64,000 nt of DNA, taken from an uncultured Candidatus Saccharibacteria bacterium. Its GTDB lineage: Bacteria; Patescibacteriota; JAQUNI01. The notes beneath the pieces are model-generated. The model saw only the letters and a list, made by a program, of their open reading frames with translations, was not told where the DNA came from and made no database searches. Where the stretch lies: NCBI GenBank assembly GCA_964555185.1, contig CAZKRD010000001.1, positions 124,265-188,264 of the forward strand, written 5' to 3'. Position numbers and translations under genes: made by a program. Shown in pieces: positions 11,801 to 37,384 of the stretch. Each line of letters begins with the position of its first letter. The stretch's first letter is position 1.

Positions 11801-12159
11801 GCTGGGCTCCTCCGCGCATGCGCAAGGCCATTCTTGGTAATGAAAAAATGGTGAATAAAGTTCTTGAAGGGATAGAAACAAAGAGAAGAAAGGAGAAAAA
11901 AGATGAACTTGAGCAAGCAAAGGCTGTAGGTAACAGAGAAGAAGTAGAGAGAATTGAAAATTATATTACGGAACAAAGAGTAGTTTGGAACGCATTGTAT
12001 AGGAAGCTTAAGATAAAAGAGAAAACTGTTGTTGATGGAACCAAAAAGCAAACTGTTGTTGATGGAACCGAGGACGAGACAACAAGAACAGAGGAAGACG
12101 AAGCAGATGCTGCTGAAGATGCAGCTGCAGCTGCTGAAGAGGAAACAGAAGGAACTTAA
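8788..12159 (+). CDS. VirB6/TrbL-like polytopic membrane protein with Cys-rich N-terminal ectodomain and a ~400-aa C-terminal module (1123 aa)
   Basis: Signal/TM (IFALLAFILIGVFWGV), a Cys-rich region, then 6-8 predicted TM helices at aa 300-620 (IGVALTTIFGLIASVIIFILGAVFWLV..., ILYMVASVIVFGATAFLLAIRIVVLWIMTAISPLIYVAMAV...). It lies immediately upstream of the VirB3-like/VirB4 genes. The C-terminal part (nt ~10944..12156) is paralogous to 13434..14618. Confidence 0.5.
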   Translation: MRKNKLKIFALLAFILIGVFWGVGRVAKVQAENLVECKRKASVAATASYWTKGDVKCDLDQNQICAYYSEWGSLGWYPKEICKKLVEARHCLGEDPDCNTDFEGALFGGDVENVKMREGIETVPAYYMSDKDYKIGCQQGFSPASTGDHERAIGVGLGRRSAEIYQCLEETDPGVYQDACGDGRGVHKEGDQIIPTACVSSDKQCVPQTKDGQYVFFAIANRTLTREQEWVDVGNPSRVVIKPGSKAYCYDTYQEIDSANCYLEADKDLIDKDSPGRKITPSINAVYGAIVGQNVKEYFRPHYECEEGGSAFWQIFNSTIGVALTTIFGLIASVIIFILGAVFWLVTAFLEWVMGISKIEVGIIDIVWEFLRDFSNMFFIIILLYIAFCTVLRIQSQNIKKALPWFMFSVILINFSQVICQIVLDFSQILIDGIYYLMPGNWWGRVNFVLHAGGMDEWMNVRTVFGSRKLNDFVGVIGAQGLSILYMVASVIVFGATAFLLAIRIVVLWIMTAISPLIYVAMAVGNKGIVKKYWISFLRTAFFAPVMIFCIVISIVILSYDLDDYLKSEVGTVEQVLSEEATQGNIVTEAGSFQNFIQLIFALAFMCTGLVVARKGSVIGADGVVKGAMKLGKMTAPWITGVKPAGHGVKALAGYGWRQALKSRAGKYLKVVSPTVWKRATKARRERVMEETFVPRAAELQPRLAGWHAFWHGGGPAYEMEKKRADSAKRKLAKDEGDRLTQTDEPSESFIGVMKVALDQAKERGDLGSIRALTPLVEGALRTAGIARGDWNDVLKSKFLKESGYGIQRATTGADVRMFKQLFGDDPEAIQVLNSLAESSKSKYTHLAYATYFDEEQGKLIYGIDRKATRSEMKSELEKLNKRRLKAGEQEMEFDDFYEEIIENLGQVDSTVRENKRLQQLGMADEVANIIKFYNNDRSKTILGELAKKSPKDKWTVNPGAFAAEIGGGYTDPETGEWHKYYGETASTEAYVESATMADATRIDSWAPPRMRKAILGNEKMVNKVLEGIETKRRKEKKDELEQAKAVGNREEVERIENYITEQRVVWNALYRKLKIKEKTVVDGTKKQTVVDGTEDETTRTEEDEADAAEDAAAAAEEETEGT

Positions 12160-15788: not shown

Positions 15789-16205
15789 ATGCAAGCAGTC
15801 GTACCCCAATTTATTGAAGTTGAAGACAGAATCATTGGCCCTTTAACCTTAAAACAGTTTCTTTATTTTTTAGCAGCCGGCGGCATAGAGCTTGTCTATT
15901 GGTTTTTCTTTGATTTTTCTTTATTTATTTTAATCAGTATTCCGACCGTAGCGATCGCCTTCGCCTTCGCCTTCTTTAAGATTAACGATCGGCCTTTTAT
16001 CTATTTTGTTTTAGCGGTCATTGGGTTTTATCTAAAACCAGTGGTCAGGGTTTGGCATCGCCGCGGCAGTAAATTAACGGCGCGGGATATTATTGCTGTT
16101 TCTTTCCTTGAAGAAACTGAAGGTGTGGGGCACAAGGATTTGCTTAAAGCGCATATGAAGCGGGGACGGCTAGCCCACATCGAGAAAGCGCTTGAAACAG
16201 CGTAG
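15789..16205 (+). CDS. Small two-TM membrane protein, VirB3/PrgI-like by position and topology
   Basis: 138 aa with a hydrophobic hairpin (FLYFLAAGGIELVYWFFF...ILISIPTVAIAFAFAFF...FVLAVIGFYL). It lies directly upstream of the VirB4 N-domain ORF, as virB3 does in T4SS loci. Confidence 0.4.
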   Translation: MQAVVPQFIEVEDRIIGPLTLKQFLYFLAAGGIELVYWFFFDFSLFILISIPTVAIAFAFAFFKINDRPFIYFVLAVIGFYLKPVVRVWHRRGSKLTARDIIAVSFLEETEGVGHKDLLKAHMKRGRLAHIEKALETA

Positions 16206-16402: not shown

Positions 16403-17155
16403 ATGCCCCCCAAACAAAAACCTAAAAATAAAACTAATCCCAAGGAGAATAAGAAGTCCAAAGGCCGTTTTTTCAGTCTCCATTCCAAAAAGCTGACCGC
16501 GGGCAAGCCCAAGAAAACCACCCAGCAATTTTTGGATATTGTTGGGATCAGGGATAATACAGTGGTGCTTCGCGACGGCACTCTGCGCGCGATTATCATG
16601 GTTTCCAGTATGAATTTTTCTTTGAAGGGCCAAGAAGAGCAGAACTCCATTATCTATAGTTATCAAAGTCTTTTGAATGCTCTGAATTTTCCTATCCAGT
16701 TTGTGATTCAGTCTCGAGAATTGAATATTGAGTCCTATCTTAAAAATTTGGAAGAGCTAGAAGCAAAGCAAACGAATGAGCTTTTAAGGATTCAGACCAT
16801 AGAATACCGCGAGTACGTGAGCGAACTTGTTGAGTGGGGCCAGATTATGCGCAAACGTTTTTACATAGTCGTATCCTATGCTTTGGTGGAAGCCAAGGAA
16901 GAAAGTATGCTGTCCAAATTCAGAGCGATTGTGCGGCCGGCGGAGATTGTGCGGCAAAAGGAAAAAGACTTCTTAAGATACAAAAGTCTTTTGGATCAGA
17001 GAGTGGCGCGTATGGACGGTCTCCTAAATTCAATCGGCTTAAAGAGCGTACGTTTGAATACACAGGAATTAATTGAGCTGTTCTATAACGTCTACAATCC
17101 GTTTGTTTCTAGAACTCAGCCCTTAGCTGATGTTAAGAAACTTAATATTGTCTAG
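16403..17155 (+). CDS. VirB4/TraE-family N-terminal domain encoded as a separate ORF
   Basis: QFLDIVGIRDNTVVLRDGTLRAIIMVSSMNFSLKGQEEQNSIIYSYQSLLNALNFPIQFVIQS...RFYIVVSY matches the pattern of the extreme N-terminus of Gram-positive-type VirB4 proteins. Same frame as 17177..19117, separated by TAG (17153-5) and TAA (17159-61). Confidence 0.5.
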   Translation: MPPKQKPKNKTNPKENKKSKGRFFSLHSKKLTAGKPKKTTQQFLDIVGIRDNTVVLRDGTLRAIIMVSSMNFSLKGQEEQNSIIYSYQSLLNALNFPIQFVIQSRELNIESYLKNLEELEAKQTNELLRIQTIEYREYVSELVEWGQIMRKRFYIVVSYALVEAKEESMLSKFRAIVRPAEIVRQKEKDFLRYKSLLDQRVARMDGLLNSIGLKSVRLNTQELIELFYNVYNPFVSRTQPLADVKKLNIV

Positions 17156-17176: not shown

Positions 17177-19117
17177 ATGCCTAATCCAAAAAACAACAAA
17201 GCCAAAAAAGAGTCAAGGGGTAAGCCCATTTTAGAAATTGTTGGTCCTGGCGCGTCCTCCAGGCTGGGTTTAACCCAAGAAGAGAAGGTAAGAGTTCTTG
17301 AGGCGCAGAAAGATTATTTAGAAGGCATCGCCACAATCAGAGACTTAATCGCGCCAGCGGCGATGAAGATTGACTCCCGTTATGTGCAGATTGGAGACTA
17401 TTTTGCGCGCACTCTTTTTATCTTCACTTATCCGCGTTATCTGCATACCGATTGGTTCTCGCCCGTGATTAATATGGACGCGGTTTTTGATGTAGCGATG
17501 TTTGTTTATCCTCAAAGTTCAGCTTCAGTTTTAAAGCGCCTGACTAAAAGCGCGGCCCAAATTTCTTCCTCTATTTCAATGGAGCGGGAAAAAGGCAAGG
17601 TCAGAAGCCCGATGCTTGAGACCGCGCATAGGGATGTTGAGTCATTACGAGATGCCTTGCAGCAGGGTACAGAGCGATTATTTAAATTCGCTCTCTATAT
17701 AACCATTTATGGGACTTCCTTAAAACATCTCGACAAAAATACAAAAAGGGTGGAAGTCTTGCTGGGCACTCGCTTGATCTATGCTAAGCATGCTATTTTC
17801 CAAAGCGAGCAGGGATTTAACTCTACTCTGCCGCTTGCCAATGACGAGCTTTTTATTGTTAACAATTTGAATACTTCGCCTTTGTCCACCAGCTTCCCTT
17901 TTGTTTCTTATGAGCTTTCTTCTAATGAAGGAATTCTTTACGGTGTTAATCGCCATAATAACAGCTTGATTCTTTTTGACCGTTTTTCTTTGGAAAATGC
18001 TAATAGCGTGGTTTTTGGCAAATCAGGCGCGGGTAAGAGCTATGCGATTAAGCTTGAAATTTTGCGGAGCTTAATGTTGGGAACCGATGTTTTGGTGATT
18101 GATCCGGAGAATGAGTATAAGCACCTGGCCAGCGCGGTAGGGGGGGCCTTTTTGCAGATTTCTCTGTCCTCACCCCATCGGATTAATCCTTTTGATTTGA
18201 CCTTGGTCTCGCGCGCATCCAAGCCCGAGGACATTTTAAGAGAGGCAGTGATAAGTCTAAAGGGGCTTTTGAGATTAATTTTAAGCGGAGTTAGTCCAGA
18301 GGAAGACGCACTTTTAGATGAAGCGGTGATGCAGACCTATGCTTCCAAAGGGATTACCCCTGAAACTTCCTGGGAGGGCCGGGCAATGCCCACGATGGAT
18401 GACTTTGAACGGATCCTGCAGAGTATGGAAGGGACCGACAGTATGGTCCAGATTTTAAGCAAGTTTACCAAAGGAACCTTTGCCGGCATCTTTAATCAGC
18501 CGACTAATCTTACTATGGATAGGCAGTTCGTGGTTTTCAGTATTCGTGATTTGGAGGATGAGCTCCGGCCGATCGGGATGTATGTGGTTTTAAATTACAT
18601 TTGGAATATCGTTCGCGCGGAATTAAAGAGAAGGGTTTTGGTGGTGGACGAGGCCTGGTGGATGATGGAGCACGAGGACTCGGCCCAGTTCCTGTTTTCA
18701 ATCGCGAAAAGGGCGCGCAAGTATTATTTAGGATTGACTACGATCAGCCAGGATGTTAATGACTTCTTGGCTTCTCGCCACGGCCAGGCGATCGTGACCA
18801 ACTCTTCAATTCAGCTCCTTCTGCGCCAGTCTCCGGCCTCGATTGATCTAGTCGCTTCCGTTTTTCACCTCACCCAGGAGGAAAAGTATCTGCTTTTGGC
18901 TTCGGACGTGGGAGAGGGAATTTTCTTCGCCGGCAATAAGCACGTGGCGATCAAGATTGTCGCTTCTTATTCTGAAGACCAGATCATTACCTCTGATCCC
19001 AAGCAGCTGATTGAGATCGCGAAAGCGAAAGAGGAGTTTGCGAGAGTGAACAATCAAGAAAACGAGGCAGCGGAAGAGAGAGACGATTCAGAGCAAGGGG
19101 CAAGTAACACTATTTGA
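17177..19117 (+). CDS. virB4: VirB4/TraC/CagE-family T4SS ATPase (646 aa)
   Basis: LIAPAAMKIDSRYVQIGDYFARTLFIFTYPRY... then YGVNRHNNSLILFDRFSLENANSVVFGKSGAGKSYAIK (Walker A), VLVIDPENEYKHLASAVGG, and VLVVDEAWWMM (Walker B, DEAW). Confidence 0.85.
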   Translation: MPNPKNNKAKKESRGKPILEIVGPGASSRLGLTQEEKVRVLEAQKDYLEGIATIRDLIAPAAMKIDSRYVQIGDYFARTLFIFTYPRYLHTDWFSPVINMDAVFDVAMFVYPQSSASVLKRLTKSAAQISSSISMEREKGKVRSPMLETAHRDVESLRDALQQGTERLFKFALYITIYGTSLKHLDKNTKRVEVLLGTRLIYAKHAIFQSEQGFNSTLPLANDELFIVNNLNTSPLSTSFPFVSYELSSNEGILYGVNRHNNSLILFDRFSLENANSVVFGKSGAGKSYAIKLEILRSLMLGTDVLVIDPENEYKHLASAVGGAFLQISLSSPHRINPFDLTLVSRASKPEDILREAVISLKGLLRLILSGVSPEEDALLDEAVMQTYASKGITPETSWEGRAMPTMDDFERILQSMEGTDSMVQILSKFTKGTFAGIFNQPTNLTMDRQFVVFSIRDLEDELRPIGMYVVLNYIWNIVRAELKRRVLVVDEAWWMMEHEDSAQFLFSIAKRARKYYLGLTTISQDVNDFLASRHGQAIVTNSSIQLLLRQSPASIDLVASVFHLTQEEKYLLLASDVGEGIFFAGNKHVAIKIVASYSEDQIITSDPKQLIEIAKAKEEFARVNNQENEAAEERDDSEQGASNTI

Positions 19118-19173: not shown

Positions 19174-19788
19174 TTGCCGGTGGTTAATAAAATTATGTTT
19201 TACAGCAATAAAAAAACAATCGTGATTTCCCTGATCCTTTGTTTGGGTCTAATCGTGATGACGGGCTTGGGCTGTAAGAGAAGCGGAGAAAAGGAAGATC
19301 TAGAGATCCTCGAACCTGAACTTGAAACTCCCTCTCTTGAAGCTCCGGTCCCGGGAACGCCTTCCCTGCCTACATCCGAGGTTCCAGGTTCAGAGAAAAC
19401 AAGCATCACCGAAAGAAAACTAAAGTCTTTGGCCGAGGATTTTGCCGCGGTTTGGGGCACTTATTCTTCGGAAAGCAATTGTCAGAATATTAGGGAGCTT
19501 CTGGATTATATGACCGCGGATTTTCGCGAGAATATGGAGGACTATCTTGAATATGAATGCACGGGAGAGATAGGAGGCGCTGACTTCACATGGGAGACAG
19601 AAGTTTTAGATAGTGTAATTTTAAATAACGACGTTACAGAGGCTGATATCCTGGTGGTGACCAGGCGCTGGAGAGATGGTGACTATGTGATAAGTTCTTA
19701 TTCTAATCTAATTCTGGATTTGAGAGTGGAAACAAACGCTCAAGGCGAGGATGAATGGAAGATTGATTATGCCTATTGGGCAGAGTGA
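19174..19788 (+). CDS. Hypothetical lipoprotein
   Basis: LILCLGLIVMTGLGCKRSGEKE (signal plus lipobox), followed by an acidic secreted domain. Confidence 0.55.
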   Translation: MPVVNKIMFYSNKKTIVISLILCLGLIVMTGLGCKRSGEKEDLEILEPELETPSLEAPVPGTPSLPTSEVPGSEKTSITERKLKSLAEDFAAVWGTYSSESNCQNIRELLDYMTADFRENMEDYLEYECTGEIGGADFTWETEVLDSVILNNDVTEADILVVTRRWRDGDYVISSYSNLILDLRVETNAQGEDEWKIDYAYWAE

Positions 19789-19794
19789 CTGATA

Positions 19795-19862
19795 ATTTAA
19801 AGTTCAAAGTTCAAAGTGACACTTCAAGTGTCATCCTGAAGGCGCTTTAGCGCCGAAGGATC
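19795..19862. terminator. Paired hairpins after the lipoprotein gene (family-B variant)
   Basis: 'aagttcaaagttcaaagtgacacttcaagtgtcat' + 'ggcgctttagcgcc'. Confidence 0.4.
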
Positions 19863-19910
19863 CCGTGAATATTCCTTGGGGCTCTTCATTATTCGTTTCA
19901 GGACAGAAGA

Positions 19911-20825
19911 TTGAATTTTGACTTTCGAAATATGGCCGCAAAACAAAGCAAAAAAGTAAAACCAGGAGATGAGGCTTCTTTCGATGTTAGACCTGGCCGT
20001 AAGAGTAAAAAGCCCGAGGAAGAGCTAGAGGCAATAGAGGGGGCGATAGAACTGACTCCATATGAAACCAAAACGGCAACTTTCAAGAAAGATAATATTA
20101 GAAGAAAAGGCAAAGCAAGACAGGAACAGGATTTTCAAGAACAATGGGAACAGCTGAAAGCGCAAAGGAGGATGATCCGGCCCCGAAGAACAGTCTCCAG
20201 AGGAGCAACAGAGTATGCTCGCCGTAAAAGAGAAAGAGAAGAAAGGACCAGGTTGAGAGAGAGAGGATACAAACCTTCTTTGGGACGGGAGATAGGGAAG
20301 GCGGGAGGAGAGAGACTTGGACAAACCGTTCCAGATGAAGAGGAAGAAAGGGAGGCGCCGCAAGAGCAAGAGGCGCAGAGAGAGCCGCAAAGAGAGGAAG
20401 AAAGGGAGACAAGAGAGGATCGTTTCCAAAAAGAGCTGCGTAAAAGAATGGGAGAGAGAGCAAAGGAGAAGGTCAAACAGAAGGTCAAACAGAAAGTGAA
20501 AGGACGGGCTAAACAGGAAGTAAAGAAAGTAGCGAAGAAAGCGGCCAAAGAAACAGCAAAGAAAGCAGCAAAAGCAGCAAGTAAGGCGCTTAAAAAGGCT
20601 GCCGCAGCAGCAATCAAAAAATTGGTTTCTCAAGTGATTGCTGGGATAGTTGCCCTTATTGGTGCGATCGGCTGGGTTGGCGTTCTCATTATTTTGGCTA
20701 TCTTAGTGATTATTATGGTTTTGGCCTATATCTATAGTTTTTGTAATGATAGCGCTCTAAATCATATTTTATGCAAGGTTTTGGGGTTTGGCGATGAACT
20801 CGATCAAATTATTCCCGCTAAATAA
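19911..20825 (+). CDS. Highly charged (K/E/R-rich) protein with C-terminal transmembrane anchor
   Basis: 304 aa. Repetitive charged region (KEKVKQKVKQKVKGRAKQEVKKVAKKAAKETAKKAAKAASKALKK), then IAGIVALIGAIGWVGVLIILAILVIIMVLAYIY. The overlapping minus-strand ORFs are low-complexity artefacts. Confidence 0.5.
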   Translation: MNFDFRNMAAKQSKKVKPGDEASFDVRPGRKSKKPEEELEAIEGAIELTPYETKTATFKKDNIRRKGKARQEQDFQEQWEQLKAQRRMIRPRRTVSRGATEYARRKREREERTRLRERGYKPSLGREIGKAGGERLGQTVPDEEEEREAPQEQEAQREPQREEERETREDRFQKELRKRMGERAKEKVKQKVKQKVKGRAKQEVKKVAKKAAKETAKKAAKAASKALKKAAAAAIKKLVSQVIAGIVALIGAIGWVGVLIILAILVIIMVLAYIYSFCNDSALNHILCKVLGFGDELDQIIPAK

Positions 20826-20837: not shown

Positions 20838-22076
20838 ATGAAAAAAACTTTTTTTTTGATAGTTTGTTTAGCGCTTTTATTAGCCCCTGGAATTATTAGA
20901 GCAAGTGAGAATGATTGCCAGGGGACCTGGGTTAAGGTGCCAATCCCAATTGTTTTTGACCCAGAGATTAGAAGTCCAGGTGGTGGCGATGAAAAATTGA
21001 GCGTAATTACGCAAAATGGCCGCTGTATCCCCAACCCGGCGATTTTGATGTTTATGCTTTTTTACCTTGCTTTGGTTTTCATGGCTTTGGTCGCGATTTT
21101 TATGATCACGCTCGGCGGGTATAATTATCTTACTGCCTTTGGCAATGCCGAACGCGCCAAAGGGGGCAAGTCAATGATACTCGCCGCGATCGGCGGCTTG
21201 GTCGTAGGGCTTTTATCTTATGTGCTTTTGAATTTTATCAATCCGGATTTAACCAGTTTTGATTGGAGCACTAATAAGCTTAGTCAGGAAATAGGGAAAT
21301 CAATGGAAAAGATCGCGGAAGAAGAGAAGAAAGAGGAAAATTTATGCCCTAATAAAGCAGGGCCTTGTTATAAGAAGCCGATAGACGAAACTTGTGAAGT
21401 CAGTGGTGAAATTGGTTATTGTCGGATGAATGTTAATGTCAAAATGTGTACATGTGATGCTGATGAATGCGCTGATAACTGCGCTGGTGGTGATCTTAAG
21501 TGCGTAGGCAAGAAGTGTAAGGATGAGGATGAGGATGCTCAGATTTCTGATGGTCAGTGCCTGCTTAGTTCTGGATCTGCAATCTGCATGGACATTGAAG
21601 GTGCCTGTGGGAATGATTGCGGCGAAACCGGTAGCGCGTACTGGCAAGGTGATCTTAATTGTTGGGGAGGTTATGACTGCGATGTTGACGGGGTTTCCGG
21701 TCTTTGTTTAGGAGGCGATAGTTACAGCGGAGCAGGGAAGGAGTTATGTTTGTCTTGGGAAGATGTATGTGAGCAGGGTGAGTGTGGTGATAGTTATTCA
21801 GGCGAGACCGCCCAGAAAGTGGAAGATGAGTGTCATACGAATTATACATGTGATAATGAAAATGGAGCTTGTTTTAATGGCAGCTGTTGGCCGGGCTCTC
21901 CGTATGGGCTTGAGCCTTGCAGTAATGCTTGTGATGCTTGCCTCTATGACAGGGCAGGGAGTGGCCAGAAATTCGGGATATGTAAAGAGATTTATTCTGA
22001 TACCTTCCAATGCACATCTTACGAAGACGCTTTTCCATGTAGTGGTCTTCCTGATATTTCAGATCCAATAGATTAG
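20838..22076 (+). CDS. VirB2/TrbC-like double-TM N-terminal region fused to a ~240-aa domain with 37 cysteines
   Basis: Signal peptide (FFLIVCLALLLAPGIIRA). Two hydrophobic helices separated by a short polar loop (ILMFMLFYLALVFMALVAIFMITLGG-YNYLTAFGNAERAKGGKSM-ILAAIGGLVVGLLSYVLLNFINP), which is pilin-like topology. The C-terminal region has 37 Cys (CTCDADECADNCAGGDLKCVGKKCKDEDED...). Confidence 0.45.
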   Translation: MKKTFFLIVCLALLLAPGIIRASENDCQGTWVKVPIPIVFDPEIRSPGGGDEKLSVITQNGRCIPNPAILMFMLFYLALVFMALVAIFMITLGGYNYLTAFGNAERAKGGKSMILAAIGGLVVGLLSYVLLNFINPDLTSFDWSTNKLSQEIGKSMEKIAEEEKKEENLCPNKAGPCYKKPIDETCEVSGEIGYCRMNVNVKMCTCDADECADNCAGGDLKCVGKKCKDEDEDAQISDGQCLLSSGSAICMDIEGACGNDCGETGSAYWQGDLNCWGGYDCDVDGVSGLCLGGDSYSGAGKELCLSWEDVCEQGECGDSYSGETAQKVEDECHTNYTCDNENGACFNGSCWPGSPYGLEPCSNACDACLYDRAGSGQKFGICKEIYSDTFQCTSYEDAFPCSGLPDISDPID

Positions 22077-22084
22077 TTCTTATT

Positions 22085-22215
22085 TTGTACTTCAACTTTT
22101 AACTTGTATTTTTGCCTGCCCGCCGAAGCCTTGGCGTAGACGGGCCTGCCCACAACGCTTCACTTGCGAGGCGGGTGGGAGATTTAACTTTTAACTTTGC
22201 ACTTTTAACTTTTAA
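22085..22215. repeat. Family-B repeat (GC hairpin plus AACTTTTAACTTT periodic tract) between the Cys-rich pilin-like gene and the PD40 gene
   Basis: 'acttcaacttttaacttg...gcctgcccgccgaagccttggcgtagacgggcctgccc...gcgaggcgggtgggagatttaacttttaactttgcacttttaacttttaacttttc'. Confidence 0.7.
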
Positions 22216-22224
22216 CTTTTCTCC

Positions 22225-23349
22225 GTGTCCCGCAAAATTTTTTTTATCATTGTTATTATTTTGATTCTAATCATTGCAGGCGCTCTGCTCTATCTTTTTA
22301 TTTTCTCTGAAAAAACGCCAGAACCGCCCCCGAGCTCTCCTCCTTCCCTCCCTATTTCTGACACAACGCCCAGTACGACCAATGTGCCGGTTGCCGTGCC
22401 GGAGGTAGCAAAAGTTACGCAAGTGATTGAAAATCGGGTTTTAAGCTTTGCCTTAAAGGGTAATGAAATGATCTATTATGATCAGGATCTAGGCGCTTTT
22501 TTTAAGATGGGTCAAAGAGGATTAACCCCTGAAAGCTACAGCGCCTCTCGCTTTAGCAATGTAGAGGAAGTGATTTGGTCGCCGGATAAAAGCGAGGCGA
22601 TTATGGTTTTTACAGACGGTGATTATTATCATTTTGATATTGCATCCAATCAGTCAGAGAAGTTAATGCCGAATATTGATCAGCTTTCTTGGCTCCCTGA
22701 TGGAAAAAAGATTGTTTTCGAGTGGCGTGAGAGAGAGAATGAGCCGCGGTTGATTATTAGCGAACCCAACGGTGATGACTGGGAAAAGATTAAGGATTTG
22801 GGTTATGCCAAGATCCTTTTAACAGCCTCTCCAGAGTTTGGCGGCCCGGTTGTTTATCTGCAGAATTATTCTTACGGCGCGGGCCGCAATATCTATCCGG
22901 TTTATGAGGATGGTTCAGCCGGAGAGGTCAATCAGATTGAAGGTTACGGCGAGAAAGCAAAATGGAGTCGAGACGGCCGCCGGATTCTTTTTGAGGCTGT
23001 AGATTCAGAGGATTTTGAACAGTATCTCTGGGTGGTTGATGTTACGGGCACAAATCAGTATAATTTAGGGGTCAAGGGTTTTATTGAGAAATGCGTTTGG
23101 AATAAGACCAATAAGAAACTCTTCTGTGCCGTGCCTTCTGAAGCGTTAGAATTCGGGACTTTGGTTACGGATGAAAGCATTGATAATTTTTGGGAGATTA
23201 ATACCAAAACCGGAGAAAAGAGCAAGCTCTATGACGAATCAGAATCAGACACCAAATTTGACGCTGATAACCTTTGGCTCAATGGCAATGAAGACAGGCT
23301 CTATTTTACGGATGAGAATGGAGGGGTTTATGTATTAAGGTTAGATTGA
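22225..23349 (+). CDS. Membrane-anchored TolB-like (PD40) beta-propeller repeat protein
   Basis: GTG start. N-terminal TM (IFFIIVIILILIIAGALLYLFIF), a Pro-rich linker, then repeats WSPDKSEAIMVF / WLPDGKKIVFEW / WSRDGRRILFEA typical of PD40 blades. Confidence 0.6.
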   Translation: MSRKIFFIIVIILILIIAGALLYLFIFSEKTPEPPPSSPPSLPISDTTPSTTNVPVAVPEVAKVTQVIENRVLSFALKGNEMIYYDQDLGAFFKMGQRGLTPESYSASRFSNVEEVIWSPDKSEAIMVFTDGDYYHFDIASNQSEKLMPNIDQLSWLPDGKKIVFEWRERENEPRLIISEPNGDDWEKIKDLGYAKILLTASPEFGGPVVYLQNYSYGAGRNIYPVYEDGSAGEVNQIEGYGEKAKWSRDGRRILFEAVDSEDFEQYLWVVDVTGTNQYNLGVKGFIEKCVWNKTNKKLFCAVPSEALEFGTLVTDESIDNFWEINTKTGEKSKLYDESESDTKFDADNLWLNGNEDRLYFTDENGGVYVLRLD

Positions 23350-23429
23350 GAAATTGGGGGTAGATAATTTCCAATTTCCAATTATTTAGGTCGCGTTAAG
23401 AGGTCGAACAAGATTCATTTAATACAGCC

Positions 23430-24272
23430 ATGGAAAAACTCGGTCGTTTTGAAAAAATAATTATTCTAATCCTTATCCTGATCGCGATTTCAGGTGTTTT
23501 GATTTTTTTTCGGAAAACAAGAGATCGTGAGCTTGCTTTTTTGAAAATAGAGGCACAAAGCAAAGACGCTTCCTTTAGAGAAGAGAGTAATCCTGTTGGT
23601 GGTAATGTAGAAGAAGGAATCTTTGCTTATGACGAGATGGGGCTTAAGAGCCAATCAAGAGAAGGTGATTATCTTGCAAAGGAAAAGGACTCCTCTCTGG
23701 AAGAAGAGTTTGGAACAGAAAATCCACAATCAATGGTCGCGAGCACTCATTCCTTGAGTTTGGCAACAGAGGATGATCCTGCTTGGGGCCCGGAGAACGC
23801 CCAAGTCGTGATTGTCGAGTTTTCTGATTTTTTGTGTCCGTATTGCGCTGAATTTTCTTTAAAGATTTTGCCTCAAATAAGATCTCAATACGGCAGTAGA
23901 GTAAGATTTGTTTTTAAAGATTTGCCGGTTGAGTCCCTGCATCCTGGCTCGGGCAAGGTGCACGAAGCAGGGGAATGCGCGCATGAGCAGGGCCGCTTCT
24001 GGCAGATGCACGATTTGATTTTTGCTAATAATGCCGCTTTATCTGAAAGCAAACTCGCGGCTTTGGCCGAGGCGGCTGGCTTGGATACAGATGCCTTTAA
24101 TCTTTGTTTAGAAAGTGGTCAGAAGATGGTGGAAGTTGCAGGCGACCTAGAGAGCGGTTTCAGCGCGGGCATCCAAGTAACACCGACTTTGTTTATTAAT
24201 GACCGCAAAATTGAGGGAGCGGTTTCGTTTGTAGAGATCAGCAGAGTTATTGAGGAGGAATTGGCTTACTAG
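23430..24272 (+). CDS. dsbA: Thiol:disulfide oxidoreductase, DsbA family (membrane-anchored)
   Basis: N-terminal TM, then VIVEFSDFLCPYCAEF (CPYC active site) in a thioredoxin fold (...IQVTPTLFINDRKIEG). Confidence 0.8.
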   Translation: MEKLGRFEKIIILILILIAISGVLIFFRKTRDRELAFLKIEAQSKDASFREESNPVGGNVEEGIFAYDEMGLKSQSREGDYLAKEKDSSLEEEFGTENPQSMVASTHSLSLATEDDPAWGPENAQVVIVEFSDFLCPYCAEFSLKILPQIRSQYGSRVRFVFKDLPVESLHPGSGKVHEAGECAHEQGRFWQMHDLIFANNAALSESKLAALAEAAGLDTDAFNLCLESGQKMVEVAGDLESGFSAGIQVTPTLFINDRKIEGAVSFVEISRVIEEELAY

Positions 24273-24277: not shown

Positions 24278-25639
24278 TTGATAATTTTTTTACGATCAAT
24301 GTCAAAATTAAAAACTGTTTATATCTGCAGCAAGTGCGGCTCTGACTTTCCTGCCTGGCAGGGCAAGTGCGGTATGTGCGGAGAGTGGAATAGTTTGGTT
24401 GCCGAGGTAACAGCGGGCAAGAAGGAGACTAAATCCGCGGTAGCAGCAGGGGAGATTGAAAGCTTGAGCGATATCCAGGGCACGGATTTTTCCCGGATCT
24501 CAACCGGAATTTCAGAGTTTAATCGCGTTCTAGGCGGAGGGATCGTTTCAGGATCCCTTGTTTTATTAGGCGGCGAACCCGGGATCGGCAAGTCCACTTT
24601 AGTTTTGCAGACAGCGGATAATTTGAGTCGGGGAAAGATAAGGGTCTTGTATGTTTCCGGCGAAGAATCAGCTTCTCAAATCAAACTGCGCGCCGAGCGG
24701 CTTAATTTGAGTTTGCAAAATTTGGATTTTTTGAGTGAACGGAATATTGACGTGGTCGTCGCGACGATCGAGAAGTTAAAGCCAAAGCTTGTGATTATTG
24801 ATTCGATTCAGACCGTTTTTTCAGATGAGTTTCCTTCCGAAGCCGGGAGCGTGACCCAGGTCCGTTTATGCACCCAAAAACTTCAGGAGACAGCCAAGAG
24901 CATGGATATTTCTATTTTTTTGATCGGTCATGTGACTAAAGAAGGGAATGTGGCCGGCCCGAAAACTTTAGAACACCTGGTTGATACCGTGCTCTATTTA
25001 GAAGGAGAACGTTATCACACTTTCCGTCTTTTGCGCGGAATCAAGAACCGTTTTGGCGCGACCGACGAAACCGGTGTTTTAGAGATGACTCAAAAAGGAC
25101 TTTTAGAAGTCAAGAATCCCTCCGAGCTTTTCTTGGAAGAGCGCAAATTAAATCTCCCGGGTTCCTGCGTCACCGCGACAATCGAAGGGATGCGCGCTTT
25201 TTTGGTGGAAGTGCAGGCCTTGTGTTCAACCACGGTTTTTGGCTATCCCAAAAGGACTGCTTCGGGTTTGAGCTTGAACCGGCTGCAGTTGATCGTCGCG
25301 GTTTTAAAAAAGAGAGCGCGCCTGCGTCTTGCTAATCAAGATATTTATGTCAGCGTAGCGGGCGGCTTTCGGGTGGCAGAACCAGCAATTGATTTAGTTT
25401 TGGCCCTGGCTATTTTTTCGGCATTTTCTGATAAACCCCTAGACCCTAGCTTAGTTGCTTTGGGCGAGATTGGTCTCTCTGGTGAATTGCGCCGGGTTAG
25501 TCAAATTGAGAAGAGAGTGAGAGAGGCAAAGAATTTAGGGTTTAAAAAAATAATCCTGCCCGAAGGAAGCAAGATTAAAGAAACAGGTTTAGAAATAATC
25601 AGAGCGAGCACAATCAAAGAGGCGATTGCAAAAGTTTAA
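24278..25639 (+). CDS. radA: DNA repair protein RadA/Sms
   Basis: Zinc finger CSKCGSDFPAWQGKCGMCGEWNS, Walker A GGEPGIGKSTL, the KNRFG motif, and a Lon-like C-terminal domain. The likely true start is the internal ATG at MSKLKT. Confidence 0.95.
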   Translation: MIIFLRSMSKLKTVYICSKCGSDFPAWQGKCGMCGEWNSLVAEVTAGKKETKSAVAAGEIESLSDIQGTDFSRISTGISEFNRVLGGGIVSGSLVLLGGEPGIGKSTLVLQTADNLSRGKIRVLYVSGEESASQIKLRAERLNLSLQNLDFLSERNIDVVVATIEKLKPKLVIIDSIQTVFSDEFPSEAGSVTQVRLCTQKLQETAKSMDISIFLIGHVTKEGNVAGPKTLEHLVDTVLYLEGERYHTFRLLRGIKNRFGATDETGVLEMTQKGLLEVKNPSELFLEERKLNLPGSCVTATIEGMRAFLVEVQALCSTTVFGYPKRTASGLSLNRLQLIVAVLKKRARLRLANQDIYVSVAGGFRVAEPAIDLVLALAIFSAFSDKPLDPSLVALGEIGLSGELRRVSQIEKRVREAKNLGFKKIILPEGSKIKETGLEIIRASTIKEAIAKV

Positions 25640-26120: not shown

Positions 26121-26495
26121 TTAGGGAGGTTTTTGTTGACGTCTAGCGTCTTGGCAAGGGTCACAGAAGAAAGAGTGAAAATCCACAATTCTTCTTAAGG
26201 GTAATCCATTTTGACACATCAAACATCTACCGGCCTCAAAAGTTTCTTGACAGTCTGCACACAAAAGAGGATTGTGTTCTAGTCTGTTGGTAGATATCTC
26301 TCTATTACAGTGAGCACACATTTCAGAACTTTGCTTCATATTAGCCAACCAACTCATAACATATTGATCATGATGAATATTGGCCATGGAAACGGTGACT
26401 TCTATAGAAACAGGGATGTTACCGTGTATCTCTCCTTCAAGTTGTATATGCCTTGCGGCTTGTCTGCCTCCACTTATATGTATTCCTCGCCCCAT
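26121..26495 (-). CDS. Hypothetical Cys-rich (zinc-ribbon-like) small protein
   Basis: 124-aa ORF with CAHCNREI...CADCQE...CLMCQNG...CDPCQD. It sits in a low-coding-density segment and has no homology anchor. Confidence 0.3.
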   Translation of the reverse strand: MGRGIHISGGRQAARHIQLEGEIHGNIPVSIEVTVSMANIHHDQYVMSWLANMKQSSEMCAHCNREISTNRLEHNPLLCADCQETFEAGRCLMCQNGLPLRRIVDFHSFFCDPCQDARRQQKPP

Positions 26496-26903: not shown

Positions 26904-28907
26904 TTACTCCAAACTGATTTTGTTAAGTTTGGTCTGAATTTTCCGCTTAAGTAAGGGATATTGAGAAAGATTTTTAACTATAGCTTCCGCTTCTGTGCGG
27001 GCTTTTTTGATTAAGGCATAGTCTAAAAGCGAGCCGATTTTAAGGTCTAAATATCCTGATTGCTTAGTGCCATAAATTTCTCCTGGACCGCGTGATTTGA
27101 GATCATATTCAGCCAATTCAAACCCATTCTCTGAAGAAACAAGGGCGCGCAATCTTCGTAATGTATTAGAACTTTTAGAATCAGTAAAAAGGAAACAATA
27201 AGACTGCTTTTTTTCTCTTCCCACCCGGCCCCGGAACTGATGGAGGGAAGCGAGGCCAAAACGTTCCGTTCCCTCAATCATCATTATTGTCGCGTTCGGG
27301 ATGTCAATTCCGACTTCCACGACTGCGGTTGAAACCAGGATTTGAATCTTATTTTTTTTGAAAGCGGCCATTACTCTGTCTTTTTCATTTGTTTTCAGTC
27401 GGCCGTGGAGAAGGCCGATTTCGTATTGTGGGAATACTTTTGTTTTTAGTTTTTCGTATTCTTTGGTCGCGGCGGCAACTCCAAGCTTGTCAGATTCTTC
27501 AATTAAAGGGCAGATCACAAAGACCTGTTCTTTTTTTTCGATTCTTTGTTGGATGAATTCGTAGGCCTTTGCTCTTTTTTGGGGCGGGACAACCCGGGTA
27601 ATGATTTTTTTTCGGCCTGGCGGCATTTGGCGGATCAGAGAGATATCAAGGTCGCCATAAAGAGTCAAAGCCAGAGAGCGGGGGATTGGCGTGGCGGTCA
27701 TTGAAAGGAAGTGCGGTGAGAGCTTGCCGCTTTTAGATTTTAGCTGGGTCCTCTGTCTGACCCCGAAACGGTGCTGTTCATCGACGACCACCAGACCAAG
27801 CTTAGGAAATTTAATTTTGTCTTGAATTAAGGCGTGGGTGCCGATCAAAATTTGGCCTTGAGGATTAATTTGTTTGGAGCGGGTTATAAGGCCTGCTTTT
27901 GTTTTAAAGCCCTTTAATAATTCAGATATTTTTTTGAAATGCTGTTGGGCTAAAATTTCGGTAGGCGCCATTAAAACCGCCTGATAGCCCGCATCTGCTG
28001 TTTCCAACATAGCCAGAGTTGCTACCACGGTTTTACCTGATCCGACATCGCCTTCTAAAAGCCGATTTGCCGGCTTGTCTTTTGCCAGATCTTTTAATAT
28101 TTCCCAGGCAGTAACTCGCTGATCGCCAGTGAGTTTAAAGGGAAGGCTTTTTGTAAACCTTTGCGCCAATTTAACATTGAGAGGAATTAGAGGCGCTTTT
28201 TCGCTTTGGATTTTTCTTTTGATTTGCAGAGCGGCAAGCTGCAATAGAAAAAATTCATCGAAAGCAAGCCGCTTCCGCGCTTTTTTCATTCTGTTAAGAC
28301 TTGTAGGGAAGTGGATTTCTTCCAAGGCTTGGTTTAAAGGGAGAAGATGATGTTTTTGTCTGATTGCAATTGGGAGATAATCATTTATTTTTTTGCTTGC
28401 GGGGAGCGCGGAGGAAACAAGGTAGCGCAACCATTTAGGCGTTAGGCCAGCAGTTGTGTTATAGACAGGGATAATCCTGGCTGTATGCGTGGTTTGCGGT
28501 TTATAGATTTCGTATTCAGGACTGCGCATAAGGTGATAAGGTGAACCAGAATCAACCCGGCCGCTTAGGTAGATATTCTGTCCTTTTTTCAAAGTATTTC
28601 TTAGATAGGGCTGGTTAAACCAGACACTTTCTAAGGTGCCTGTCTTATCCGAGACTTCTGCTCGGGTTAATATCATTCTTCTGCGCGGAGTGCGGATTGT
28701 TTTGATTCTTTTGATTTCCCCTAAGATTGTAAGAGTTTGACCGGGTTCTATTTTGTCAATTGGAACGATTTTGCTGAAGTCATTGTAGCGAAAAGGGAAA
28801 TAAAAAATCAGGTCACGGATCGTCTTGAGACCTAATTTTTTTAACGCTTTTTGTTTGGTCGGCCCTACGCCATAGAGCTTGCTAAGAGGAGTTTTAAGGG
28901 AGAGCAT
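26904..28907 (-). CDS. recG: ATP-dependent DNA helicase RecG
   Basis: Wedge/OB N-terminus. Helicase motifs GDVGSGKT, DEQHRFGV, MTATPIPRSL. 667 aa. Confidence 0.95.
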   Translation of the reverse strand: MLSLKTPLSKLYGVGPTKQKALKKLGLKTIRDLIFYFPFRYNDFSKIVPIDKIEPGQTLTILGEIKRIKTIRTPRRRMILTRAEVSDKTGTLESVWFNQPYLRNTLKKGQNIYLSGRVDSGSPYHLMRSPEYEIYKPQTTHTARIIPVYNTTAGLTPKWLRYLVSSALPASKKINDYLPIAIRQKHHLLPLNQALEEIHFPTSLNRMKKARKRLAFDEFFLLQLAALQIKRKIQSEKAPLIPLNVKLAQRFTKSLPFKLTGDQRVTAWEILKDLAKDKPANRLLEGDVGSGKTVVATLAMLETADAGYQAVLMAPTEILAQQHFKKISELLKGFKTKAGLITRSKQINPQGQILIGTHALIQDKIKFPKLGLVVVDEQHRFGVRQRTQLKSKSGKLSPHFLSMTATPIPRSLALTLYGDLDISLIRQMPPGRKKIITRVVPPQKRAKAYEFIQQRIEKKEQVFVICPLIEESDKLGVAAATKEYEKLKTKVFPQYEIGLLHGRLKTNEKDRVMAAFKKNKIQILVSTAVVEVGIDIPNATIMMIEGTERFGLASLHQFRGRVGREKKQSYCFLFTDSKSSNTLRRLRALVSSENGFELAEYDLKSRGPGEIYGTKQSGYLDLKIGSLLDYALIKKARTEAEAIVKNLSQYPLLKRKIQTKLNKISLE

Positions 28908-31852: not shown

Positions 31853-32011
31853 CTATTAGCGAGGAGCGACCAGAGGGAGCGACAAAGCAATCTCATAAAC
31901 AGCAAAAATAAGCCATTTTTATTTCTTGGAGATTGCCTGCCTGCCGCCTGCCTGCCGGTAGGCAGGGTGGGCAGGCTTCGGTCGAGCAGTAGCCCTCTCT
32001 CGCAATGACAT
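31853..32011. repeat. Family-A IR miniature element without cargo (degenerate left end)
   Basis: 'tattagcgaggagcgaccagagggagcgacaaagcaatctc ... gagattgcctgcctgccgcctgcctgccggtaggcagggtgggcaggcttcggtcgagcagtagccctctctcgcaatgacat'. Confidence 0.55.
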
Positions 32012-32150
32012 TTTGCGAATTTTCGAATTCACGATATTGAGGCTTGCTTTTTTGAATCAGTTTAGTATAATACAGAGAAGTTCTTTTTGACAAAATATGT
32101 TTAGATTTTTAATTATCTTTGTAGTGGTTCTTCTACAAAAGGAGGTTGTG

Positions 32151-32474
32151 ATGCCAAAAGCATTAGCGCGATATCAACCTGGCTTAGAGGTTGAGATGAG
32201 TTGCTATCAATCTGGATGTGAAGATGTGTCGATTCCTGTGACTCTGGGCGGCGAATTCCCAGTTCATCCAGATTTTGTAGTCACATATAGCCTTGGAAGC
32301 ATGCATCGGGATGAGGGGACGGCAGCGAAGGGTTTCTCACTGAGTGAGCGTTTTGGCGGTTCGGGCTACTGCAAGTGCCCAGGATGTAATACTTTGTTTG
32401 GAGCAGTCGTGATCATTTCCAATGGGAGCGGCAAACCGGCTTCAATCTTTGGTTATAGTCCGGAGCCCGCATAA
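32151..32474 (+). CDS. Hypothetical small protein (107 aa)
   Basis: Strong RBS 'aaaggagg' 7 nt before ATG 32151: MPKALARYQPGLEVEMSCYQSGCEDV...CKCPGCNTLFG. No known motif. Confidence 0.4.
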   Translation: MPKALARYQPGLEVEMSCYQSGCEDVSIPVTLGGEFPVHPDFVVTYSLGSMHRDEGTAAKGFSLSERFGGSGYCKCPGCNTLFGAVVIISNGSGKPASIFGYSPEPA

Positions 32475-32690
32475 TGAACATTCCGCGAGATTGTTCACCA
32501 GTGGATTTATTGTAATATCACTGGTTTTTTTATTCGAGCAAAAAGCATTTTAAAAGTATAATAACTGACGAAGGCGGTGGGTGCAGGATTCCCACCCTAC
32601 AGGTGGTCATCCAGAAAGGGTGAGAATCTGTTGTGTGTTGCGGCGCCTTTTGGTTAAAATTCGAACCTATTTTCAGGAAAATTCCGATAC

Positions 32691-32731
32691 CGATTTTTAA
32701 TCTACCCGCCCGCCTTCGGCGGGCGGGTAGA
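32691..32731. terminator. Strong GC hairpin (13-bp perfect stem), terminator-like
   Basis: 'ctacccgcccgcc ttc ggcgggcgggtag' lies just downstream (minus-strand sense) of serS and inside the island's left end. Confidence 0.4.
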
Positions 32732-32881
32732 AAATCCGTTTCAAAAATTCGCTTCGCGGATTTCCGTCTCGGCAAAAAATTTTGTTAAGATAAAATTGTT
32801 TAAAAGCAATTTTGGAAATTTCAAAAATCTTTTGATATTTCTTTCCAAATTTCATTTTTCGTAAACAAAAATATCACCACT

Positions 32882-34177
32882 TCAAAAATTGACTTTTGGG
32901 GGATTGCTCAAAATGATTTTGGGTAAACTCGGCATATATTTTCGTAAAACCTCTGGAACTTTTACGCTTCCATCCTCCTGTTGGTTATTTTCAATTATTG
33001 AAATTAAAAGTCTAGGTACGGCAAAAGCTGTTCCGTTTACAGTATGAACAAAGTTTAATTTACCCAATCTGTTTCTACAGCGAATATTTAATCTTCTTGC
33101 TTGAAAATCAGTACAATTTGAAGTTGAATGGGTCTCACGATATCTATTTTGAGATGGTATCCATGTTTCGATATCATATTGGCTAGCCGTAGGCAATGCC
33201 ATATCTCCACTACATATTTTAATTACACGATAAGGAAGTTTTAATGCTTCCATTAACTTTTCTTCTATTTCTAGAAATAACCAGTGCTCTTTTTTTGAAT
33301 CCTCCGGTTTGCAAAAGCTAAACATCTCAATTTTATCAAATTGGTGAACCCTAAAAATCCCTCTTGTATCTTTTCCATAAGAGCCACTTTCTCTGCGAAA
33401 ACAAGTGGAAAAACCTAAATATCTCTTAGGAAGTTCTTCATTATCAAAAACCTCGTTGGAGTGCATTGCACCTATAGAATGTTCTGCTGTGGCCACTAAA
33501 TATAAATCATCTTGAGGTAGATAATATGCCTCCTCTTTACCAGAATGTTCTAAATATCCCATTCCTCTTTCCATTTCTGATTTTAACATTGCCGGTGGAA
33601 TAATTGGAATAAATTTAAATTCTTTAATTAAAATATCATAAGCCAATTTTATTAAAGCAAATTCCAATAAAACTGCTTCCTTCTTCAAAAAACTAAATCT
33701 TGTCCCAGAAATCTTTGCTGCTCTTTTAACATCAATTATGTCTAATTTTTCACCAATCTCTAAATGGTCTTTTGGTTTGAAATCAAATTTTGGCCTCTCT
33801 CCCACCTCTCTTAAAACTACATTCTCTCTCTCATTTTTTCCTATTGGAACATCCTCTTGAGGTAAATTTGGGACTTGAAGTATTAAGTTATTAATTTTTT
33901 TTTCAAGAATTTTTAGAGTTTTATTTAATCTATCACTGTTTTTATCTAATTCTCTCATTTCTAAGATTATTTTTTGTTTTTCTTTCTCATCTTTTATTTC
34001 GGAAATTTTTTTTGAAGCTTTATTTTTTTGAGCCCGCGTGTCTTCCAAGGTTGGAATTATTTTCCGTCTTTTTTTATCAAATTCTAAAAGTTGATCAATA
34101 TCAACCATAACCTGCTTCTGTTGACAAGCACTTTTTACTTTATCGAGATTCTGACAAATAAATCTAATATCTAACAT
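32882..34177 (-). CDS. serS: Seryl-tRNA synthetase (bacterial type, class II)
   Basis: N-terminal coiled coil. Class II motifs FRRESGSYGKDTRGIFRVHQFDKIE, TSNCTDFQARRL, GTAFAVPRLLISIIENNQ. 431 aa. Confidence 0.9.
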   Translation of the reverse strand: MLDIRFICQNLDKVKSACQQKQVMVDIDQLLEFDKKRRKIIPTLEDTRAQKNKASKKISEIKDEKEKQKIILEMRELDKNSDRLNKTLKILEKKINNLILQVPNLPQEDVPIGKNERENVVLREVGERPKFDFKPKDHLEIGEKLDIIDVKRAAKISGTRFSFLKKEAVLLEFALIKLAYDILIKEFKFIPIIPPAMLKSEMERGMGYLEHSGKEEAYYLPQDDLYLVATAEHSIGAMHSNEVFDNEELPKRYLGFSTCFRRESGSYGKDTRGIFRVHQFDKIEMFSFCKPEDSKKEHWLFLEIEEKLMEALKLPYRVIKICSGDMALPTASQYDIETWIPSQNRYRETHSTSNCTDFQARRLNIRCRNRLGKLNFVHTVNGTAFAVPRLLISIIENNQQEDGSVKVPEVLRKYMPSLPKIILSNPPKVNF

Positions 34178-34243
34178 AAATTAATAATAACAAAAATAAT
34201 GAAATAAGAGTAGTCCCCTTAATTATTTGTCATTGTTGTATTT

Positions 34244-35248: not shown

Positions 35249-35264
35249 AAATAGTCTTAAGTGA

Positions 35265-36470: not shown

Positions 36471-36475
36471 AAAAT

Positions 36476-37351: not shown

Positions 37352-37384
37352 TTTTTGAAGTGGTGATATTTTTGTTTACGAAAA

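Follow-up and report, generated by a model that had tools for sequence, protein, structure and literature searches.

What could a Patescibacterial type IV secretion system (T4SS) present to a host cell? VirB2-like pilins are widespread in Patescibacteria and essential in one Saccharibacterium (PMC12102498, PMC10633639, PMC12857230); Southlakia epibionticum carries an essential six-gene pilin array (PMC10633639; PMC12102498; PMC12857230). In the one species tested, epibiotic growth depends on the Patescibacterial T4SS itself, the function of which has been called completely unknown; whether a monoderm system of this kind builds a pilus has been described as an open question (PMC11665869, PMC12857230). 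Here we analyse a 64,000-nucleotide stretch of DNA (the window; contig CAZKRD010000001.1, positions 124,265 to 188,264), deposited as part of an uncultured Candidatus Saccharibacteria bacterium, in which a T4SS locus includes a gene at 20838..22076 on the forward strand for a cysteine-rich VirB2-like protein of the T4SS_pilin family (hereafter, the pilin). The analysis is computational only, and the organism belongs to an uncultivated lineage. We conclude that the gene probably encodes a VirB2-like subunit of the Patescibacterial T4SS that has acquired, in this lineage, a disulfide-rich outer domain of around 230 residues, displayed on the T4SS as a contact surface.

A divergent T4SS pilin with a long extension

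The gene is a genuine open reading frame (ORF) of 412 codons for amino acids, as the initial annotation had it: it opens with ATG, and a Shine–Dalgarno sequence (AGGAAG) lies 8 nt 5′ of the start. An identical copy of the 412-residue protein is present on a 706,972-bp metagenomic scaffold, and there are eight full-length orthologues of 385–531 residues with 29–74% identity. The protein contains 33 cysteines, rather than the 37 first counted: one in the signal peptide (C10), two ahead of the first transmembrane helix (C27 and C63) and 30 within residues 170–401, in the C-terminal domain. Its cysteine content is 8.0%, versus 1.2% in the other window ORFs of at least 100 residues (binomial P = 9e-17).

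The protein can be divided into five parts. Residues 1–22 (20838..20903) form a signal-peptide-like N-terminus, recognized by hydropathy and by equivalent N-termini in the orthologues, in which MKK and a hydrophobic core are followed by the residues IRA and SE; by the −3/−1 rule, cleavage would fall between these last two groups. A short N-terminal ectodomain follows (residues 23–66, 44 amino acids; 20904..21035), with the single cysteine pair C27/C63; all nine sequences (the query and eight orthologues) have C27, and five of the nine have C63. The pilin module (residues 67–134; 21036..21239) consists of two hydrophobic helices, at about 67–99 and 104–134 according to both Kyte–Doolittle hydropathy and AlphaFold2 (AF2), and the loop that joins them, GNAERAKGGK, has three Lys/Arg versus one Asp/Glu. 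The signal peptide, paired helices and short basic loop described in the initial annotation are thus all present. A charged linker (residues 135–169; 21240..21344), with a low-confidence AF2 helix at 145–167 and 24% mean identity among orthologues, leads into the lineage-specific disulfide-rich ectodomain (residues 170–401; 21345..22040), which has 31 glycines in addition to its 30 cysteines. In total, about 280 residues lie C-terminal to the helical hairpin.

The likeness to VirB2/TrbC pilins, originally drawn from topology, extends to homology. The T4SS_pilin profile PF18895 aligns with residues 74–133 over profile positions 12–70 of 71 (E = 0.0015, 19.0 bits), and seven of the eight orthologues match it over nearly its full length at 18–22 bits, the eighth having no match. 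Searched exhaustively with phmmer, a set of 1.84 billion representative proteins yielded 4,722 at E ≤ 1e-3, nearly all of them aligned over residues ~70–145. These relatives include bona fide PF18895 proteins, such as P0011 (E = 9.8e-28) and P0014 (E = 1.1e-19), which themselves match the profile at 3e-15 and 3e-71, respectively. Among the 99 nearest relatives, a set taken outside the eight-orthologue group, 95 match PF18895 (E ≤ 1e-3) and 12 also match the TrbC/VirB2 family PF04956. The hairpin keeps all of the family-consensus residues (GGxxYxTAxGN...AK...GL.L.L.SY.IL..INPxL) and has a mean identity of 53% among the orthologues, one of which carries the NCBI name 'pilin'. Because the phmmer relatives, the consensus residues and the PF18895 alignment agree, we treated the N-terminal module as a T4SS_pilin homologue, and on these comparisons we regard it as established that residues ~67–134 belong to the T4SS_pilin (PF18895, VirB2-like) family as a divergent but true member.

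A conserved cysteine scaffold with changing loops

We then considered what the extension might be. Around 23 cysteines of the C-terminal domain, together with C27, are invariant over the nine sequences, at an overall identity of 29–40%. The domain has 30, 30, 28, 26, 28, 44, 28, 28 and 24 cysteines in the nine proteins and the mature N-terminal segment 2, 2, 4, 2, 4, 4, 6, 6 and 6, so that every count on either side of the hairpin is even; the hairpin itself is free of cysteine in eight of the nine. Because cysteine parity survives gains and losses, as pairing predicts, we reasoned that these residues form paired structural disulfides. The remainder of the domain is much less constrained: its identity among orthologues is 32%, or 22% once the cysteine positions are removed, compared with 53% for the hairpin. 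At the level of the locus, the pilin is 31–38% identical, the oxidoreductase encoded downstream 47–51%, RadA 66–72% and VirB4 78–82%. In composition the domain is rich in Gly, Asp and Glu, with a net charge of −29 and one histidine, and a metal cluster is disfavoured because the domain is acidic and has only that single His. Taken together, these features indicate a conserved disulfide scaffold with fast-changing loops, predicted to be extracytoplasmic. The proposal of a disulfide-stabilized exported domain, made in the initial annotation, is therefore upheld by the invariant cysteines, their even counts, the acidic, His-poor composition and the charge pattern of a protein with both ends outside.

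That topology is the VirB2 arrangement. We infer an N-out/C-out hairpin because four features agree: the signal peptide, the positive charge of the loop, the acidic flanks and the cysteine parity of both flanks.

The domain has no recognizable relatives outside its own family. It has no Pfam match; sequence and profile searches of the PDB found nothing for either the whole protein or the domain profile; and Foldseek with the AF2 model against the PDB gave no match with E < 0.9. Nor did Pfam, the PDB or Foldseek reveal a sequence or fold match to known cysteine-rich families (EGF, knottin, LDL-A or TNFR-type), which leaves the EGF- or knottin-like fold that had been suggested without a supporting match. 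A word-index search of 5.8 billion proteins with the domain alone recovered only the same fusion family, and the domain is restricted to the query and its eight orthologues, always fused to the same pilin module. The AF2 model from a single sequence had a predicted local distance difference test (pLDDT) score of 47; with nine sequences the mean rose to 58.6, with 65–80 over residues 170–350, and short beta-hairpins were predicted in the cysteine-rich domain.

By eye, the domain resembles a series of about five six-cysteine modules. Those at residues 254–307 and 308–353 are related (hhalign E = 6.7e-6, versus a best value of 4e-4 in 25 reversed controls). Modules C and D were the only ones to score better than reversed sequences, so that five repeats are not established; a BLAST self-comparison of the pilin detected no internal repeats.

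An oxidoreductase encoded two genes downstream

The second gene downstream of the pilin, beyond a gene at 22225..23349, encodes a thiol–disulfide oxidoreductase of the BdbD/MdbA type (23430..24272, +), matching Thioredoxin_4 at 4.4e-29 (102 bits, cut-off 23.2) and DSBA at 2.5e-15. This agrees with the membrane-anchored, thioredoxin-fold CPYC protein of the initial annotation. One N-terminal hydrophobic segment (residues ~9–27) and a linker of about 85 residues precede the Thioredoxin_4/DSBA domain, an arrangement in which the membrane anchor would place the enzyme outside. The motifs CPYC (residues 136–139) and TPT (251–253) and a second cysteine pair, C183/C226, are invariant in six orthologues (47–93% identical), and the proline of TPT is, from its position in the alignment, the likely cis-proline. 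Among solved structures, the nearest to it is BdbD (3eu3, 3.5e-13), followed by chains deposited as DsbA (4pwp/4pwo, ~2e-12).

The intervening gene (22225..23349, +) encodes a protein with an N-terminal membrane anchor and a beta-propeller-like ectodomain, the latter on weak, sub-threshold matches to PD40, TolB and DPPIV_N. It has one hydrophobic segment, one conserved cysteine pair (C290/C301) and no DsbB-like core, and orthologues occur in all of the syntenic loci, with 55–64% identity in the four distant ones. In Helicobacter pylori, DsbI combines a DsbB-like protein with a beta-propeller (PMC4597128).

The order pilin, propeller-like gene, oxidoreductase recurs in every one of the six loci long enough to show it. 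In one of these, L009, the three genes are only ~20 nt apart, consistent with co-transcription. Scanning metagenomes with the oxidoreductase profile produced 80 loci, in which the pairing appeared only as re-finds of the same three contigs, and scanning a genome collection with the pilin profile produced seven loci, of which only a Doudnabacteria contig had both the fusion and the oxidoreductase. In the other loci of the candidate phyla radiation (CPR) that we examined, pilin arrays had no DsbA within 10 kb. Because the pairing is confined to one collinear lineage, synteny cannot tell functional coupling from lineage collinearity, and as evidence for a dedicated pilin–oxidoreductase partnership it is weak. 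Of the DsbA link that had been proposed, the identity of the enzyme as BdbD/MdbA-type therefore stands, whereas its dedication to the pilin is not established by synteny in one collinear lineage.

A model for display on the T4SS

We propose the following model. The pilin would leave the cytoplasm through Sec and lose its signal peptide. The two helices would enter the membrane as a hairpin whose short basic loop faces the cytoplasm, with both the N-terminal segment and the C-terminal domain outside, where some 16 disulfides would form (1 in the N-terminal segment and 15 in the C-terminal domain). The catalyst would most plausibly be the membrane-anchored BdbD/MdbA-type CPYC enzyme encoded two genes 3′, and the product a rigid, acidic scaffold with fast-evolving loops. 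On the T4SS at the cell surface, the domain would be presented by a pilus-like polymer along its length or by a short assembly close to the membrane, and there contact or recognize the host cell; it may serve on the surface or at the tip of a pilus, or in adhesion. The signal-peptide cleavage site, the topology, disulfide formation, its catalyst, polymerization and host contact are the parts of the model that we infer.

Several observations weigh against this model. The direct PF18895 score of 19.0 bits is below the gathering threshold of 26.6, the AF2 model of the pilin is of only moderate confidence (mean pLDDT 58.6), and a subunit with a ~25-kDa domain may be unable to polymerize. With 412 residues, the protein exceeds canonical VirB2/T4SS pilins three- to fourfold in size and so departs from the small single-domain form (~100–150 residues), yet many family members are long and multidomain. 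Further pilin genes may lie in the rest of the 707-kb genome, beyond the window and the loci searched. As for the catalyst, the synteny of pilin and oxidoreductase is limited to a lineage in which VirB4 is 78–82% identical and radA and recG are also collinear; DsbA-like loci more distant than these, 35 in number and each at least 6 kb long, had no pilin, VirB4 or propeller gene nearby; and an 18-cysteine pilin in an Uhrbacteria locus had no DsbA within 10 kb. Finally, a search for the dsbB or vkor partner that the initial annotation had called for found no candidate: none among the window ORFs by hydropathy and cysteine inspection (not all ORFs were scanned with Pfam), and none in the flanks (~8 kb on the upstream side and ~10 kb on the downstream side; ~80 kb in total with the window), for which Pfam assignments had been precomputed.

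We lean slightly towards the view that the oxidoreductase is a housekeeping enzyme for all exported cysteine-containing proteins, among them the type IV pilins, the ectodomain of the VirB6-like candidate and the large cysteine-rich secreted proteins, placed beside the pilin gene by collinearity; this view is compatible with a displayed, disulfide-rich pilin, and the likelihoods of the two are not exclusive. The gene order itself favours it, because radA (24278..25639) follows the oxidoreductase in all five loci that reach it and recG (26904..28907, −) in all three that extend that far, and because radA, recG and comF (38951..39625, −) are common neighbours of ABY1 T4SS loci (PMC12102498). So do the distant DsbA-like loci, which lack pilin and VirB4 neighbours, two of them having radA ~6 kb away and no pilin. 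Even cysteine counts were found in 19 of the 22 exported proteins of the window, ten of these counts being zero, which leaves several other exported proteins with even, non-zero counts; the enzyme probably serves many clients, including other cysteine-bearing exported proteins. Moreover, a CPR-enriched MdbA-like family, 3.6k.fam00998, has been proposed to fold type IV pilins as a general pilin-folding factor, with VKOR its commonest neighbour (Meheust et al., 10.1101/335083). Against a purely coincidental position stand the ~20-nt gaps in L009 and the pilin itself, which, with ~16 predicted disulfides, would make heavier demands on the enzyme than most clients encoded nearby. A housekeeping role would also leave the enzyme possibly still required for the pilin.

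Pilin subunit or membrane anchor

The main rival to a pilus subunit is a protein in which the hairpin serves only as a membrane anchor or T4SS-docking module, so that the cysteine-rich protein is tethered to the surface, as an adhesin, a receptor-binding protein or a structural protein, and does not polymerize. It is plausible because in many family members this module bears an SLT, VanY, peptidase or PKD domain: among the 99 nearest relatives we counted 10 SLT, 4 VanY, 3 Peptidase_C39_2, 3 Peptidase_M15 and 1 PKD domain. P0011 and P0051 are examples of such fusion proteins, and other relatives are tandem hairpin arrays, with six PF18895 domains in P0014 and eight matched stretches in P0021. 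The T4SS_pilin module seems to act as a general-purpose carrier of extracellular domains. Many members of the family are also rich in cysteine: in a pilin-family set of 158 sequences (including 4 non-pilin proteins, all with even counts), the median content is 2.9%, at least 4% is reached in 43 of 158 and the count is even in 117 of 158. The pilins with the cysteine-rich domain have the highest density of the set (7–9%).

A ~25-kDa appendage on each subunit also seems hard to pack into a VirB2-type filament. In conjugative pili, however, as F-pilus structures show, both pilin termini face the filament exterior, and with both termini in that position a C-terminal appendage would be topologically possible. 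The hairpin retains all of the family-consensus residues, and the gene is the sole pilin-domain ORF of the T4SS locus and of the 64-kb window; six-frame HMM searches likewise found one in each related locus, whereas the other CPR loci that we examined keep arrays of 2–9 short pilins. Given these findings, we regard a hairpin that is an anchor and nothing else as possible but somewhat unlikely, and favour a subunit of the T4SS that displays its outer domain.

A bolder version of the display model would make the sole VirB2-like subunit of this essential-type T4SS the host-recognition device in ABY1/Doudnabacteria. The hairpins would polymerize or dock, each showing a hypervariable, acidic, disulfide-knotted domain that sets the host, and, more generally, the CPR pilin module would serve to display adhesive and wall-degrading domains (cysteine-rich, SLT, VanY and peptidases). 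We put this forward tentatively, as a conjecture that is unlikely to hold; if true, it would mean a 'decorated' secretion pilus of a kind that classical T4SSs lack.

Two further readings concern the fate and the side of the domain. Small disulfide-rich secreted proteins are often toxins, and the cysteine-rich domain might be cleaved after the second helix and released as a disulfide-knotted toxin, bacteriocin or signal, the hairpin being an export or tether pro-region. The fast evolution of the domain and the poorly conserved charged linker between the two parts (residues 135–169, 24% identity) could be read in this way. However, there is no protease site or family match for such processing, the domain is fused to the hairpin in nine of nine orthologues and never found alone, and at ~230 residues and 15 disulfides it is far larger than typical knotted toxins, all of which make its release improbable. 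An inverted topology, with a cytoplasmic domain that binds Zn or an Fe–S cluster, would account for the high cysteine density and some CxxxC spacings, but is extremely improbable in view of the signal-peptide-like N-terminus, the positive inter-helix loop, the net charge of −29 with a single His, the even cysteine counts kept in all orthologues through gains and losses, the lack of a Pfam metal-binding family match and the 0–1 cysteines of the cytoplasmic T4SS proteins of the locus.

The T4SS locus and its surroundings

The pilin gene starts 1.7 kb 3′ of virB4 on the same strand, an arrangement repeated in seven related loci. Upstream, all on the forward strand, lie genes for a PrgI (VirB3-like) T4SS membrane protein (15789..16205; Pfam PrgI 3.7e-8, 34.2 bits, gathering score 27), a TraC-like/TrsD-like component (16403..17155; NCBIfam TrsD 3.5e-7, and PF26593 TraC-like in the precomputed annotation) and the VirB4-family ATPase (17177..19117; NCBIfam conju_CD1110 1.1e-107, 361 bits, cut-off 325), which also matches the Pfam families TraG P-loop and CagE_TrbE_VirB. 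Between virB4 and the pilin gene are two small ORFs of conserved position (19174..20825, +), encoding a 204-residue lipoprotein-like protein with an LGC lipobox and a 304-residue Lys/Glu-rich protein with a C-terminal hydrophobic hairpin. Neither has an above-threshold Pfam or NCBIfam match, and their counterparts in related loci are strongly divergent.

At the head of the T4SS genes, 8788..12159 (+) encodes a 1,123-residue polytopic membrane protein with about 8–9 hydrophobic segments and, judging by hydropathy and cysteine positions, an N-terminal ectodomain of ~290 residues with 14 cysteines; orthologues occupy the same position in L001, L005 and L010. It may be a VirB6-like protein, of the 'extended VirB6' kind. 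The initial annotation had described its ectodomain as cysteine-rich, which is correct, whereas the name VirB6-like draws on topology and position, the protein having no Pfam or NCBIfam match. The same annotation had pointed to two further cysteine-rich secreted proteins, and these too are as described: 57340..59457 (+) has 38 cysteines in 705 residues and 56259..56990 (−) has 10 in 243, the two forming a divergent secreted pair with weak PKD, fn3 and dockerin hints. By phmmer, all three are unrelated in sequence to the pilin domain. Searching the window ORFs with the N- and C-terminal halves of the pilin also gave no paralogue and no shared cysteine-rich domain.

A T4SS in the neighbourhood of radA, recG and comF is typical of the class ABY1 (Quinonero-Coronel et al., PMC12102498), and by its gene content the locus is of the ABY1/Doudnabacteria type; its nearest named relative is a Candidatus Doudnabacteria metagenome-assembled genome. 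Together with the monoderm-type T4SS genes and a type IV pilus cluster, radA, recG and comF mark the window as Patescibacterial. The recombination and competence genes beside it raise the possibility that the T4SS handles DNA. Two related loci have a small 23S_rRNA_IVP (PF05635) gene among their T4SS genes (L005 3872..4243 and L010 5225..5437), and the window has none.

In the spacer between the pilin gene and the next (22077..22224), repeats of the motif ACTTTTAAC surround a GC-rich core. L001 shares the spacer, L007 and L010 have a loosely similar one, and in L009 it is nearly missing; its length is not conserved. We considered and rejected a structured RNA here, since folding was no better than in shuffled sequences (z = −1.58) and the length varies, as well as an Rfam element, the best match being RAGATH-30 (E = 0.17, 19.9 bits versus a gathering score of 59.5). 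Scans for promoters and terminators gave counts equal to the shuffle expectation.

Elsewhere in the window, 26121..26495 (−) encodes a 124-residue protein that has eight cysteines in zinc-ribbon-like spacings, no hydrophobic segment and weak zf-FPG_IleRS/PHF5 similarity, and L001 has a gene of the same size at the equivalent position. The stretch 32000..38700 is low in GC (0.29–0.36 versus ~0.43) and could be an integrated island; it is bounded by the gene for a large serine recombinase (37385..38650) and encodes a seryl-tRNA synthetase, a radical-SAM protein, an archaeal-type AdoMet synthetase (PF01941) and a PHP-domain protein. A type IV pilus cluster occupies 42562..55175 (+), with prepilin-like (class III) N-termini at 47968 and 48556, each product having two cysteines. 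The precomputed annotation of this cluster places the PilO family in one gene and an N_methyl motif in two, and a response regulator is present; PilM-, PilB-, PilT- and PilC-like and prepilin-peptidase-like ORFs are putative assignments from ORF size and sequence inspection.

Discussion

Two components of this locus belong to families that are already known, the Patescibacterial VirB2-like pilins and the CPR-enriched MdbA-like oxidoreductase (10.1101/335083). Like the former (PF18895), the pilin has a homologous two-helix hairpin after a signal peptide, keeps the consensus residues and is encoded near virB4, prgI and a traC-like gene in a chromosomal, relaxase-less T4SS locus of the monoderm type. 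Unlike them, it is the product of a single gene rather than of an array of 2–11 short paralogues, has 412 residues rather than ~100–150 and carries a lineage-specific ectodomain with 24–44 cysteines that the surveys of these pilins consulted here do not describe; in those surveys, neither cysteines of the pilins nor disulfides nor DsbA are mentioned. With an E value just above the E < 0.001 cut-off of a published survey, the pilin was probably not counted there. The VirB2/TrbC/TraA conjugative pilins of Gram-negative T4SSs (PF04956) and an archaeal conjugation pilin (PDB 8dfu) are also among its closest known counterparts.

What is new is a lineage whose single T4SS-locus pilin gene is fused to an ectodomain without homologues and with 24–44 cysteines. 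The evidence from parity and invariance for a predicted scaffold of ~16 disulfides is also new, as is the finding that cysteine-rich and enzymatic extensions are common throughout the T4SS_pilin family. Like the other CPR fusions of this family (SLT, VanY, Peptidase_M15/C39, PKD and tandem forms), many of which are also cysteine-rich, the protein uses its hairpin to carry an extracellular domain. The appendages of those proteins are recognizable enzymes or adhesion folds, whereas the domain described here is without a match and found in this lineage only.

The enzyme encoded downstream resembles Gram-positive, membrane-bound oxidoreductases that act on pilus or pseudopilus subunits, of which BdbD oxidises ComGC. 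With BdbD (Bacillus subtilis, 3eu3) and MdbA (Actinomyces/Corynebacterium), the product of 23430..24272 has in common a DsbA fold, a CxxC motif, a cis-Pro loop and a single N-terminal anchor. By analogy with MdbA (FimA pilin; 10.1101/335083), it could oxidise exported subunits of a pilus type in a monoderm cell. It differs from the CPR MdbA-like family, in which VKOR is the commonest neighbour (10.1101/335083), in that no VKOR, BdbC or DsbB was found within ~80 kb. It also differs from MdbA and BdbD in its proposed client, which would be a VirB2-like protein with ~16 disulfides and not a sortase pilin or a type IV (pseudo)pilin with one.

Threshold-based surveys probably overlook divergent, extended pilins of this sort. 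Models of the pilus are constrained in turn, in that each subunit would have to accommodate a ~25-kDa appendage. The T4SS of these organisms may also need oxidative folding outside the cytoplasm in order to function. In conclusion, the cysteine-rich pilin offers a concrete and testable candidate for the surface through which a Patescibacterial T4SS would make contact with its host.

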